Shown here: in pieces, positions 11,901 to 17,900 of the stretch | How positions within the stretch are numbered: position 1 is the first letter of the stretch | How the letters are laid out: each line of letters begins with the position of its first letter | Virus record (IMG/VR): IMGVR_UViG_2869947659_000007 | Coordinates: 1-26,870 of that record | Source: a virus | Lineage: Duplodnaviria > Heunggongvirae > Uroviricota > Caudoviricetes | Strand: one strand, 5' to 3' | Length of the DNA: 26,870 nucleotides | Program-made: the position numbers

Positions 11901-14900
11901 CCAGCCATTCCAGTCCTAACTCCAGAACGGGTAGGCAAAATAGAAGTGCTATCCGGCAGCTTCTTAATGAATCCAGTTCAAAGCCCTGTAAAGGAACAAG
12001 CCGCTTTTGCTGTAAAAAACGTTCGGCAAGAGTGACTAATTTGCTTTGTTCCTGTTCCGTCAGACACGTTAAAAGGGGGATCGATAGTGCTTCCTGCCTG
12101 GGAAGGGCAGTTTGATGTGCTGATTCTTGTACTTTCCAGGGCCACTTAATCATCGTTTTGCTCGCAAACTTGTCACTTGAACAAAATTGCACGGACAGGG
12201 ACTGTTAAAATGCCAAATTTCCTGGCATCATGGCAACCATCTGAACGGAGAGATGCCGGAGCGGCTGAACGGACCGGTCTCGAAAACCGGAGTGGGGGCA
12301 ACTCCACCGGGGGTTCAAATCCCCCTCTCTCCGCCAAAATTCAATCACTTATACATCATTAAGTCAGTGACAAAAATCACACGTGGAATTACTTGGAATA
12401 TTTTCAGGTAACGGGACATCAAGTGTCGGTGAAACTTTAACCTTCCTGTCATAGATTAGCACTTGCCCCTCGGTTTTGTGACCAGAGAAAAGTTGCTTAT
12501 CCCGACTGCTTCCTTCATAGTCTGAAATTCCTTTCGCCTTCAGATCATGAAAGGTGAAGTCTGACATCATACTGTTTTGTCAGCTGATATTGTTCCGCGG
12601 TTTTCGGATTACCTGCCGTAATATTTTTTAAATGCAACATTGTTAAATACTCGCTACGTTATACCAGATGCCATTAATCAGTTTTTGCAGCGGTCGGTAA
12701 TACACACCGTTGACGTTATCCGCTGAGTTACGGCCGGTATCCGATATCGATATCCCTGACAACCCGTGTCCCGAAGGTGAGCGAAACGTCCATGAAACGG
12801 TGTTGCTGCCAGGGTTGTAATACATTTCATAACCATACCGCACATCCTGTACCCCCTCAGTTCGATGTTTATAGCGGGCATCGAAGTTTCCGTAATTTAA
12901 CGGAATTACCTGTCCGTTTACAGCGAATGTGATACTACCATCGGTATTTCTCTGGCTGTAGAAATGCCAGCCGGAATCATCACCAAGCTCTGCAACAACA
13001 GGCCTGGATGGATTACCCCACAAATAAAACGCTGCATTTTTCGTGGAGTTGTTGGCGCTGGATAACGTGAATTTTTTAGCATTTCCGGCCTGAATATTTT
13101 TTAACGCTATCGCCACACCATTCTGGAAACGAAATACATGCTGTCCATTCGCATAAACATCCAGAATGCCGTCGCCGTTTTGTTTTATACCTGTATCGTT
13201 ATCCCCGAAAGCAATTGAATTCCCCCCAGGGCGTTCTGAACGCCGATACCCAGCGCACCATTGACCTGCGAACCACCGCCAACAGACACTTTATGCGACA
13301 TGGATATTTCACCCGTCCGCAGATTAATGGTGAACGGGCGCAGGGGACCAATATCGCCATTTTCCCCCTGACCTTCACTGGTGGGAATAAGGTGCAGGCA
13401 CTCTTCCGAACGACGAAAAATCAGGCCAAAAGCTTCGTTGAAAATCCTCAGCGCATTAACACCACGGATTTTCAGCTCTCCGGTCATGGTGTCGCCATCA
13501 CGCTGAACGGCATTTTTTGCCTTATCCACCGTGGGTTTTAATCCGAGGTTTTCAACAGCCTCATCCCTGTCTTCCACATCCGAAAGGTTATTTTTTATCA
13601 GCAATGCCTCTTCGTTAATTGCACCGCCCACCAGCAATAATATAGCCTTATATAGCTGGTCGTGTTCTTCTTTATTCAGTTCTATCCCGGCCTTCTCAAT
13701 GACACCACAGATTTCCTCCTGAATGGCATTCCACATGGCACTGTTCAGCCAGGTAGCAAGACGTCCTGTGCGAAGATTTCCGTCAGTAAATCCGTTCTTA
13801 CCCGGACCAAACTTATCTTTTACCGCAGTCAGCGTATCAATCCTGTGCATCTTCATCCTCATCTAGATAGGAAAATAAAACGACGGTGTGTGACGGACAT
13901 AATTTATTAATCACGCACTCCGCAACCGTATCCCCCCACGTCCGGATCGGTGTGTTGCAGGCGTCCGTGCATGTCTGCCACTGAGCACCGGCATCCACCG
14001 GCAACGTCACACGCCAGAAATAACGCCAGCGATCTCCCCATTCCGGATCGGGGCTTGCATCCAGGTGCTGGAACTGTTCGATCGTTACGCCGGTATATCC
14101 CAGCGCCTCAAGCTGATCCAGGAAGAACTGCTCATTTATGCCACCAGCCACATTGGCTTTTGCTTCAAGACGTTGCTGACGCTGGCGTAATGTCTGGGTT
14201 CCGACAGGGGAACAGGAATCAGGTAAACCATACAATTCTTCATAACGTTCAATCAGCTCTGTGGACTGACCGGGATCGATTTCAATCACCAGTTCATCAG
14301 CCCGCTGGTGAACACGCACAAGCGATGGTGCCAGACCGTCAAGTACACCGTCGGTATCTGACCATGCAGGCCCCGGCTGCATCAGTCCGTACAGCAGCTT
14401 TGTATAATCATCCTGTAACGAATCCATTATTTACTCCTTGCCGGGTCATAAGCCTGCCAGGTGATCTCGCCGAGCACCGGAAGCTCGGTCTCCCCCAGGT
14501 CAATATCCGATGAAGGGACGATTAACCGGTGGGCCACTTCACCAGCAGACAAACTGATGGCCTCACTGATTCTGGACAGATACATACGCCCCTCTGGCAC
14601 ACTGAGGTAGCCTGAGTTTAACGGACACTCCTTCCTGAAATAGAATGGCATCAGAAGGAGCTAATAATGAGCAGAAAAAACCAACGTTACTCTAAAGAGT
14701 TCAAAGCCGAAGCTGTCAGAACGGTTCTTGAAAATCAACTTTCGATCAGTGAAGGCGCTTCCCGATTATCCCTTCCTGAAGGCACTTTAGGACAATGGGT
14801 TACCGCCGCCAGAAAAGGGCTCGGTACTCCTGGTTCCCGCACGGTGGCTGAACTGGAATCTGAAATTCTGCAACTGCGTAAGGCGTTAAATGAAGCTCGC

Positions 14901-17900
14901 CTTGAGCGAGATATATTAAAAAAAGCAACAGCGTATTTTGCACAGGAGTCGCTGAAAAATACGCGTTAATCGAACAATGGCGACAACAATTTCCCATTGA
15001 AGCGATGTGTCAGGTATTTGGTGTATCCAGGAGCGGTTATTACAACTGGGTACAGCATGAACCCTCAGACAGAAAACAAAGTGATGAGCGGCTAAAACTG
15101 GAGATTAAGGTGGCACATATCCGCACTCGCGAAACATATGGAACCCGGCGGCTCCAGACGGAGCTGGCAGAGAATGGCATCATCGTTGGTCGTGACCGAC
15201 TGGCACGTCTTCGTAAGGAGCTAAGGCTACGCTGTAAGCAGAAACGCAAGTTCAGAGCGACTACGAACCCGAACCACAATCTGCCAGTTGCGCCAAATCT
15301 GCTGAACCAGACGTTCGCTCCTACAGCACCAAATCAGGTCTGGGTGGCGGACCTGACGTATGTTGCCACACAGGAGGGATGGTTGTACCTCGCTGGCATC
15401 AAAGATGTTTATACGTGCGAAATTGTCGGCTACGCCATGGGAGAGCGCATGACAAAAGAGCTGACAGGTAAAGCCCTGTTTATGGCGCTCAGGAGCCAGC
15501 GCCCACCTGCCGGGCTAATCCACCACTCTGATCGAGGTTCACAGTACTGCGCATACGATTACCGGGTCATACAGGAGCAGTCTGGTCTGAAAACATCAAT
15601 GTCGCGTAAAGGTCACTGTTACGACAACGCTCCGATGGAAAGCTTCTGGGGAACGCTGAAAAATGAGAGCCTGAGCCACTATCGTTTTAATAACCGGGAT
15701 GAAGCCATCTCAGTAATACGGGAATACATTGAGATTTTTTACAATCGTCAGCGTCGTCACTCTCGTCTGGGGAATATCTCCCCGGCAGCCTTCAGGGAAA
15801 AATATCATCAGATGGCTGCTTAAAAAAAGAACAAATGGTAGTGTCCGCTATTGCCAGTACACCTCACTGAGCCGGAGATTCCGGATCAACGGCAATGCTG
15901 ACCACCGTCTCTTCCTGTGGTGGATTCTGTTGCTGGTGGGCGTGAGGCAGCAGCGCAAGATTTTTTGTGCGCTGCTTCAGTATGCTGGTGGCGGTCTGCT
16001 CTCCCGGCACGATGTCGCTTTCACGGTACATTGAGCGGATTTTTTCCGCACGCAACCCCAGCGAACGACGTAATACTGCTTCCGGTAGCGCGTCCGCCAC
16101 CTGATTGCGGACCGCCCACCAGGATAATTCAGCCAGAGATAATTCACGCTCCTGCGTACCGCTTATTGCGTGACCGATGACGTCAATCATCCATGCTGAC
16201 AGGTTTTGATGAGCAAGTTGCTCGAGTGATTCGGATGTCTGGTCACGCAACTGGTTGTCGCAGTGCCAGCACAACACCATTGCGCCGGTACCATAACGGT
16301 GAATGACGGTTTCGCTGTGATGATAATCGCCGTGTGGCCACTGGCAGGATTTAATATGGCGCAACAGCCAGTCAGACAATGCACCAGCACCACCAGCAGC
16401 ACGAATCACCCGTGCGTTACTGAAAAACGGCAGCAATGTTTTGTCTTCCACTAGCGGCTGGCGAACGGCAGGAACGACCCCGGACGGCAGATTACGCATG
16501 CTTTTCGGTTCCGGCTCCACCAGTACCCGGGTATTGTGGAATACCGGCATGGATTCACGGCCTGGCTTAAGGACCACCAGCCCGAGTTCCGGAACCAGAA
16601 CAGGTCGAAGTAATACCCGCACATTACCTCCAGATCCGTTGCTGGAATGTGCAGGACGGACGCGGTGGCCGTTCGGAATAAGGGAGCCTGACGAAGATTA
16701 TCCAGTGACGATAATCGAGACTGAGGGCTTTCTTAATCTCGTATCCGTGTCTGCGGTAGCGCTGAATCAGCCATTCAGCCTGTTCTTCGGTGCAGGGGTC
16801 GTGCTGATACCAGTCAGATTTGAATGCATGAGAACGCCGCCCGTGCCTGCTGGCAGGGGCGGCAGAGTTATCCGAATTGTAAAATTTGGTATCGTGCGCC
16901 ATCTGTTTTCTCTGCTGGCGCAGCAGGTGCCAGTTGTTCAGGCTGACGGATGGATTGTAAACCAGAACGACCAGAAAAAACAAAACCCGCCGAAGCGGGT
17001 TAAGTGCGGGTGCGTTGAGGATGCCTGACACATCAGCGGTGGCGAGGGATTTCTCCCCCGCCGGGTCTCTTACTCCTCAGGTTCGTAAGCTGTGAAGACA
17101 GCGACCTCCGTCTGGCCGGTTCGGATTCGTACCTCGCAGAGGTCTTTCCTCGTTACCAGTGCCGTCACTATGACGGTTAAACAGATGACGATAAGGGCGA
17201 TTAACATCGCCTTTTGCTGCTTCATAGCCTGCTTCTCCTTGCCTTTCGGCACGTAAGAGGCTAACCTACATGTGTTCAGCATGGATTGAGCCTCAGATTA
17301 ATGTTAAGCGTCTTGCAGGACGCGTAATGTTAACTGGGGCTTTTCTCTATCTGCCTTTTGGTGTTCATGCCTGAGACAGATAGCCTCAAGCACCCGCAGT
17401 CATTCTACTTAACTAAGATTTCCCTGCAAACCGTTTTTGTCCGGCACAGTAAATATCCAACTAAACCAATAGCGTTCGCTGTATTTACCGCCAGTATTCA
17501 ATGCACATGACCGCCATGAACACCCCTAAAAAAAGGGCATTTATATGTCCAAACATTAATATCAAAACATCAATTTTTTCCATATACCTTGCTGTGAAGA
17601 TGATGGGCATACATGATGCGAACAACCAGAACGCAACAAACAAAAACTGCAATGCGTTTTTCATTATTCCCCCTACAATCAATGTGCAATAACATTTAAA
17701 CACACCTCAATTTGGCCGGACATATAAATATCTAAACCAGAAAAAATCACTTACATAGCGTTACAAACTCTTTAGTCTAAATACTCATCGTAAAACATTC
17801 CCCATACTTATCAGTCCGTTCCGCGCCAGGTAGCTTATTGCCTTATCTGGCAACCTATAATCAGGTTTCCGCTTTTTCAGTTGGCTGGTCGTTTAACCGA

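Follow-up and report, generated by a model that had tools for sequence, protein, structure and literature searches.

The question raised by the viral record IMGVR_UViG_2869947659_000007 (26,870 nt; hereafter the window, that is, the whole stretch of DNA analyzed, to which all positions refer unless another locus is named) is how a complete copy of the insertion sequence (IS) IS600 came to lie between two truncated and unrelated phage genes, and what was lost when it did. The evidence presented below indicates, with a probability of about 0.9 (a figure that excludes the route), that this element, denoted copy 1, marks an IS600-associated internal deletion of a single prophage. The deletion spans the region from codon 302 of the gene for baseplate protein J to codon 253 of a gene for a DUF968 protein, and IS600 copy 1 is its scar. 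The window is 100% identical to CP026766.1, and the source genome was read across the window and 9.6 kb beyond it (about 36 kb, or some 10 kb on either side of the chosen genes of CP026766.1). The intact reference is the prophage locus of Escherichia coli FDAARGOS_944 (NZ_CP065613.1; coordinates within this locus are prefixed L001). Following the check suggested in a first-pass annotation of the window, both flanks of IS600 copy 1 were compared with a related prophage that is still intact, and a search was made for strains that retain the undeleted order.

The scar at IS600 copy 1 and the undeleted arrangement

The features that make up the junction are as follows.

14427-14602, minus strand: 3' end of the 360-codon baseplate J/gp47 gene, of which the last 58 codons and 2 nt remain, corresponding to L001 5920-6095
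14603-15866, plus strand: IS600 copy 1, complete, 1264 bp, delineated by the element match, the domains of its open reading frames (ORFs) and its tips
14667-14969, plus strand: orfA of IS600 copy 1, with a match to HTH_Tnp_1 (1.3e-20)
14918-14925, plus strand: A7G slippery run near the end of orfA, a predicted frameshift site
15005-15823, plus strand: orfB of IS600 copy 1, with matches to rve (1.8e-25) and HTH_21
15867-16622, minus strand: 5' part of the 352-codon DUF968 gene, from codon 1 to codon 252, corresponding to L001 29223-29978

Copy 1 is 99.8% identical, over the full 1264 bp, to elements annotated by PGAP as 'IS3-like element IS600 family transposase'. It starts with TGAGGTAGCC and ends with GTACACCTCA; the terminal inverted repeats are imperfect, both beginning with TGAGGT, and 20 of the 29 outer positions are complementary between the two ends (counted by eye). 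The element is bordered by cac (14600-14602) and ctg (15867-15869), that is, by no 3-bp target duplication, as expected of the product of a rearrangement. Duplications of 3 bp, each of them now split, do accompany further IS600 insertions in this prophage, namely gac at a second copy at the right end of the window (copy 2) and the triplet at window positions 26016-26018 in the sister strains discussed below. An assembly artefact at the repeat was considered and ruled out, the same junctions being present in many independently finished genomes.

Neither gene is complete at the junction. The J remnant has a precomputed Pfam match to Baseplate_J_C, and the 74-aa mechanical ORF drawn over it (14427-14651) begins within IS600. 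The DUF968 remnant terminates at a TGA that is the reverse complement of the last bases of IS600 (15864-15866), and the CxxC...HH...CxxCH motif of this protein sits in the 100 residues that were lost. The 74-aa and 252-aa ORFs at the two ends of IS600 are accordingly best annotated as truncation products.

In FDAARGOS_944, the prophage occupies the same site, between zinT and tRNA-Ser/mtfA, and both flanks of copy 1 are found within it in the forward orientation: positions 12562-14602 correspond to L001 4054-6095 (99.8% identity) and positions 15866-20192 to L001 29222-33548 (99.7% identity). In genome coordinates, the two flanks border an interval of 23,127 bp, the left one reaching to 630094 and the right one beginning at 653222, on the same strand and in the same order, and the junction alignments show that the intact sequence parts from the window exactly at both IS600 tips. 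J and the DUF968 gene are thus two separate genes lying 23 kb apart. By its annotation, the 23,127-bp interval is the late region of the phage. Its baseplate and tail genes comprise the remainder of J, gp46, baseplate V and W-like genes, and genes for a DNA circularization protein, the tape measure, tail assembly, tube, sheath and terminator; its head and packaging genes comprise those for head closure, connector, major capsid, prohead protease, portal, the large and small (P27-family) terminase subunits and an HNH endonuclease; and its lysis and late control genes comprise those for an Rz-like protein, lysozyme, holin, four tRNAs, antiterminator Q, RusA and the 3' end of the DUF968 gene. Because two ISEc60 copies of 1297 bp each, located within the interval, are specific to FDAARGOS_944, the phage DNA missing from the window amounts to about 20.5 kb. 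Over 63% of its length, the interval matches phage phiP27 with 95% identity; across the head-to-sheath block, its identity to SfI/SfII is ~84%.

With this comparison, the first-pass description of the junction is borne out throughout, and its interpretation is supported. The gene to the right of IS600 lacks its 3' end and the gene to the left its 5' end, as proposed and as now seen against the full-length genes; the two fragments are indeed not halves of one gene; cac and ctg are not a duplication at either junction; and alignment of the flanks to an intact prophage recovers the undeleted order. The claim that lysis, terminase, head and most tail genes were deleted through IS600 agrees with the intact relative, but the list was too short, given that Q, RusA and the tRNA cluster are gone as well.

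FDAARGOS_944 was the only intact relative found. Its prophage adjoins tRNA-Ser and mtfA through the integrase gene, has a partial copy of tRNA-Ser near zinT, and encodes a P27-type terminase and a Mu-type baseplate; the prophage is therewith of a phiP27-like, ipaH-associated type integrated at tRNA-Ser (serU) beside mtfA. Of these landmarks, the window retains no more than fragments. Because the strain carries ipaH and a 261-kb plasmid bearing IS600, it is probably enteroinvasive.

Inheritance of the scar and the route of the deletion

Both junctions of the scar are base-for-base the same in at least 13 independent loci in finished Shigella genomes. The carriers include Shigella boydii Sb227 (CP000036), S. 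boydii ATCC 8700 (CP026731) and S. flexneri serotype 6 strain 64-5500 (CP026811), as well as CP026840, CP099865, CP162059 and one draft genome; the left junction of the scar is also present in metagenome scaffolds. The surroundings of the scar are more variable than the scar itself. In Sb227-type genomes, the tail-fibre end continues, as in the intact relative, into a complete assembly gene, a second fibre gene, a DUF4376 gene and ipaH, and collinearity of the Sb227 remnant extends from the integrase gene across the scar as far as the tail fibres and ipaH. In the sister strains CP026866, CP026867 and CP026872 (loci L002, L008 and L009), an exchange of flanks has taken place between copy 1 and an inverted IS600 located in the integrase gene, such that the 3-bp duplication at window positions 26016-26018 is divided between the two exchanged elements. 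The genome of the window shows a further, different inversion of the remnant. Given that the identical scar is found in genomes with differing outer arrangements, it is older than these later rearrangements and goes back to one old, inherited event. It is a stable lineage marker common to S. boydii and S. flexneri serotype 6 strains. In the same three sister genomes, the integrase gene also holds an IS1 with a 9-bp duplication (window positions 26249-26257).

Two routes could have produced this scar; the sequence evidence fits them alike and, because no intermediate was found, the choice between them rests on priors. Recombination of the RecA type between two direct copies of IS600 is given roughly even odds, slightly ahead of the other route. 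Under this scheme, one copy would have been inserted in J, with duplication of cac, and the other in the DUF968 gene, with duplication of ctg, and the exchange would have yielded one hybrid IS600 with half of each duplication. Homologous exchange of this very copy with another IS600 did take place in CP026866, CP026867 and CP026872, at least three further IS600 elements have entered the same prophage, and a pair of IS600 copies is known to remove the type III secretion system (T3SS) island of pINV by recombination (PMC5629016). A scar without target duplication is what both IS-IS recombination and adjacent deletion are expected to leave (PMC11708052).

Adjacent deletion, to which we assign somewhat less than an even chance, would start from a single IS600 in J or in the DUF968 gene, with the transposase joining a free end of the element to a site 20-23 kb away and the intervening DNA being discarded. 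The resulting scar would be the same (one IS, no duplication, collinear flanks) and two events would suffice, compared to three for recombination between two copies. Moreover, adjacent deletions by IS150, a member of the IS3 family, are frequent and range from 14 bp to 48.9 kb (PMC11708052). On the other side of the balance, no strain with the single insertion was detected among 5,426 complete E. coli genomes or the contigs encoding a junction ORF, the same copy took part in homologous exchange in the sister strains, and a second direct copy is plausible given the three or more further landings of IS600 in this prophage. Any route other than these two seems improbable.

Several observations weigh against the interpretation preferred here, either against the recombination route or against the deletion itself, and are considered together. 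All 14 of the 14 IS150-associated deletions in three populations of the long-term evolution experiment (LTEE) were of the adjacent kind (PMC11708052). Among the 5,426 complete E. coli genomes, there is none with IS600 in J only, in the DUF968 gene only, or in both with the late region retained. The query for such intermediates was a chimera that consisted of the 3' part of the DUF968 gene, ctg and the left end of IS600, followed by the right end of IS600, cac and the continuation of J; the best coverage obtained, 38%, corresponds to one flank alone. The contigs that encode either junction ORF likewise include no intermediate: the long contexts of the 252-aa ORF all have IS600 at the truncated end of the DUF968 gene, three of them showing a later inversion, and those of the 74-aa ORF all show the scar with its order of truncated DUF968 gene, IS600 and truncated J. 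Nor was an intermediate encountered among homologues of full-length J. An IS600 in J only would give the junction GTACACCTCA-CAC-CATCCCGTAACATC, and one in the DUF968 gene only GCGCTGGAGATA-CTG-TGAGGTAGCCTGAG. Exact-pattern scans of public genome and metagenome contig collections for predicted junctions of intermediates returned none, and the real junction, used as a control, was also absent from the genome collection; some of these collections hold no Shigella of the scar-bearing type, and negatives there mean little. The reference prophage is itself decayed, its sheath and portal genes carrying ISEc60 and its terminase and Q genes frameshifts, so that the size of the ancestral interval is approximate. 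Finally, the 23 kb are absent from the ~36 kb of the source genome that were read, and translocation keeps a small probability.

The sole truncated, near-identical homologue of J (P0003) was considered as a candidate intermediate and rejected as unrelated, because it diverges downstream of the IS600 site.

The remaining explanations fare less well. It is unlikely that the copy 1 scar, together with the IS-free junction at 12561/12562 described in the next section, records transposase-driven breakage at the tips of IS600 rather than plain homologous recombination; such breakage would involve either excision of the IS with loss or re-joining of the flanks, or an insertion without target-site duplication (TSD) at a break. 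Relocation or inversion of the late region to another part of the genome through IS600 exchange has a very small probability. Shigella genomes are strongly rearranged through IS, and two different inversions of this prophage are seen in sister strains, but the flanks of copy 1 keep the intact order and orientation, as a deletion would leave them and an inversion would not. The 26.9-kb window and the 9.6 kb beyond it contain nothing of the interval, and the flanks of IS600 copy 2 (gac and tcc) are unrelated.

Smaller still is the chance that the flanks come from two different prophages joined through IS600, with nothing deleted from one phage. Several related remnants of Mu-tail/lambdoid prophages exist in Shigella and the immunity region of the window (20192-22043) is unlike that of the reference; however, both flanks occur in one FDAARGOS_944 prophage, at the same attachment site and each with 99.8-99.9% identity, and the Sb227 remnant is collinear through the scar. 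Comparably far-fetched is a deletion independent of IS600, for instance by a break and illegitimate joining, into which IS600 entered afterwards without a duplication: for IS5 and IS481, insertions of this kind at the center of deletions have been suggested (PMC11708052), but the suggestion is unproven and did not concern IS600, whose ordinary insertion at a later time would leave a 3-bp duplication of which there is none at copy 1, and no IS-free junction of truncated J with truncated DUF968 was seen in any of the junction-ORF loci examined.

The surviving remnant, its inversion and an IS-free junction

The rest of the prophage remnant, from the chromosomal border to the right end of the window, consists of the following features.

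12361-12561, minus strand: 3' remnant of the prophage integrase gene, adjoining tRNA-Ser (12247-12336) and ending in gtc
12562-12640, minus strand: 5' remnant of the tail-fibre assembly gene, cut at L001 4053/4054 and fused without an IS to the integrase 3' end
12642-13850, minus strand: tail fibre gene, 402 codons in the reference, here two ORFs (12643-13116 and 13185-13862)
13837-14427, minus strand: YmfQ/Mu gp48-like baseplate gene, intact, part of the surviving tail-distal block
16623-22230, minus strand: surviving early region, with a hypothetical gene, hokD, an ead/Ea22-like gene, DUF4406 and DUF977 genes, a gene for a replication/DNA-binding protein, a YdaT-like gene and genes of the repressor region
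22231-22998, minus strand: IS1 without a 9-bp duplication, in place of L001 36904-38492
22999-26503, plus strand: genes for an exonuclease VIII-like and a DUF4224 protein, then the 5' part of the integrase gene, whose final gac abuts the left end of IS600 copy 2
26504-26870, plus strand: IS600 copy 2, oriented like copy 1 and cut off by the end of the window

Copy 2 extends over 1264 bp in the source genome, with 2 differences from copy 1, and borders on tcc and then zinT. The gac at 26501-26503, at the end of the integrase 5' part, is the reverse complement of the gtc that ends the integrase 3' part, and because the two halves of the gene carry these complementary triplets, copy 2 began as a normal insertion. 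In such an arrangement, the right tip of IS600 is predicted to lie beside the integrase 3' piece, giving the junction GAAGTC-TGAGGTGTACTGG. What lies to the right of copy 2, however, is zinT (locus L010, 11760-11930) and not the integrase 3' end. Given that the integrase 3' part is fused to the tail-fibre assembly stub and that copy 2 is followed by zinT, the block from 12562 to copy 2 is inverted relative to the chromosome (tRNA-Ser/mtfA). This locus no longer contains the distal fibre genes, ipaH or the partial tRNA copy. The first-pass annotation had seen no second rearrangement; on this point it has to be corrected, the remnant being inverted relative to tRNA-Ser. Exchange of flanks between copies 1 and 2 was examined as a source of the scar and ruled out, since copy 2 is flanked by gac and tcc and the Sb227-type strains have the scar without copy 2.

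At the IS-free junction (12561/12562), the integrase 3' piece with its copy of the copy 2 duplication is fused to the tail-fibre assembly gene, of which a 5' stub remains. The breakpoint coincides exactly with the former tip of IS600, and the junction recurs in a single gut-metagenome scaffold (L016). Its lack of an IS is not accounted for by standard IS-IS recombination. The sequence joined at 12562 begins with TGACATCATACTG and resembles the right tip of IS600, TGAGGTGTACTG. Excision of an IS with loss of flanking DNA has been described for IS3-family elements (IS629) in the presence of an IS-excision enhancer (PMC9943667), and by analogy, a process of this kind would fit as the cause of the junction.

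Decay of the remnant is apparent elsewhere, too. The integrase 5' part is frameshifted (25662-26506), a further sign of decay like the split tail fibre gene. The IS1 at 22231-22998 replaces ~1.6 kb that contain ydfA, ydfB, ydfC, dicB and a DUF1482 gene, and is a second IS-associated deletion in the same prophage. IS600 copies 1 and 2 form direct repeats 11.9 kb apart around the whole surviving early region, an arrangement resembling a composite transposon, and one more recombination between them could remove that region.

Several other observations concern the mosaic structure of the locus. The repressor/immunity stretch at 20192-22043 is unlike the otherwise 99.7-99.9% identical reference; only 433 bp (20738-21170, 85%) and 189 bp (22043-22231, 96%) align to it in this neighborhood, and the alignments suggest that the stretch is a mosaic replacement. 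The chromosomal flank (10557-12561, with yeeJ, tRNA-Asn, mtfA and tRNA-Ser) is 98.3% identical to FDAARGOS_944 and the prophage pieces (12562-26504) are 99.5-99.8% identical, so that the window and this strain are more alike in the phage than in the backbone. The start of the window (1-5078) contains an IS1 followed by siphovirus-type head-tail genes of a different phage (tail tube, tail completion, HK97 gp10-like, head completion and connector), and a 1.3-kb IS3-family element at ~3774-5078 splits a yeeJ-like gene for an adhesin with Ig repeats (3160-3774 and 4918-10941).

A dead prophage among known systems

Because the head, tail, terminase and lysis genes as well as Q are lost, the remnant cannot make particles, lyse the cell or switch on late transcription. 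The segment 12562-26503 is therefore to be read as one dead prophage and not as two unrelated phage fragments, and a single loss of the late region locked a prophage that carries the effector gene ipaH in related strains into Shigella cluster-1 genomes. The event is of a known kind, a textbook case of IS-driven prophage decay in Shigella, with no new mechanism. IS600 is among the five IS types that have expanded in all Shigella, and IS-mediated gene loss in this group is genome-wide (Hawkey et al., 2020, PMC7373316).

Among the closest precedents is the loss of the T3SS island of pINV between two IS600 copies (Pilla et al., 2017, PMC5629016), which involves the same element and host group, leaves one IS and removes tens of kb. 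In the pINV case, both parental IS were known and the event was watched in the laboratory, whereas here the product alone is at hand and the parental state is inferred from another strain. The adjacent deletions caused by IS150 in the Lenski lines (Ngan et al., 2024, PMC11708052) involve an element of the same IS3 family, lack a duplication and start at the tip of the IS, and the size of the present deletion falls within their range (up to 48.9 kb). In those lines, earlier time points had revealed the simple insertion that preceded each deletion; for IS600 copy 1, a prior state of this kind was not found.

With respect to the phage itself, phiP27 (an Stx2e phage) and SfI, SfII and SfV combine a lambdoid early region with an HK97-type head and a Mu-type contractile tail, and the missing interval shares with this group the P27-family terminase small subunit and baseplate genes of the gp46, gp47 and gp48 types. 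Unlike the phiP27/Sf group, the present prophage is integrated at serU and, in Sb227 as in the intact relative, has ipaH past the tail fibres; in the window it is a non-viable remnant.

In its overall fate, the remnant resembles the cryptic lambdoid prophages of E. coli K-12 (Rac, Qin/Kim and e14), which kept early genes and lost late genes. The shared features include hokD, the ydaT/ydfA-C/dicB neighborhood, DUF968 (as in ydfU) and an exonuclease VIII-like gene, along with the disappearance of the late functions. In contrast to the K-12 prophages, however, both the endpoints of the deletion and its agent, IS600, are directly readable in this locus.

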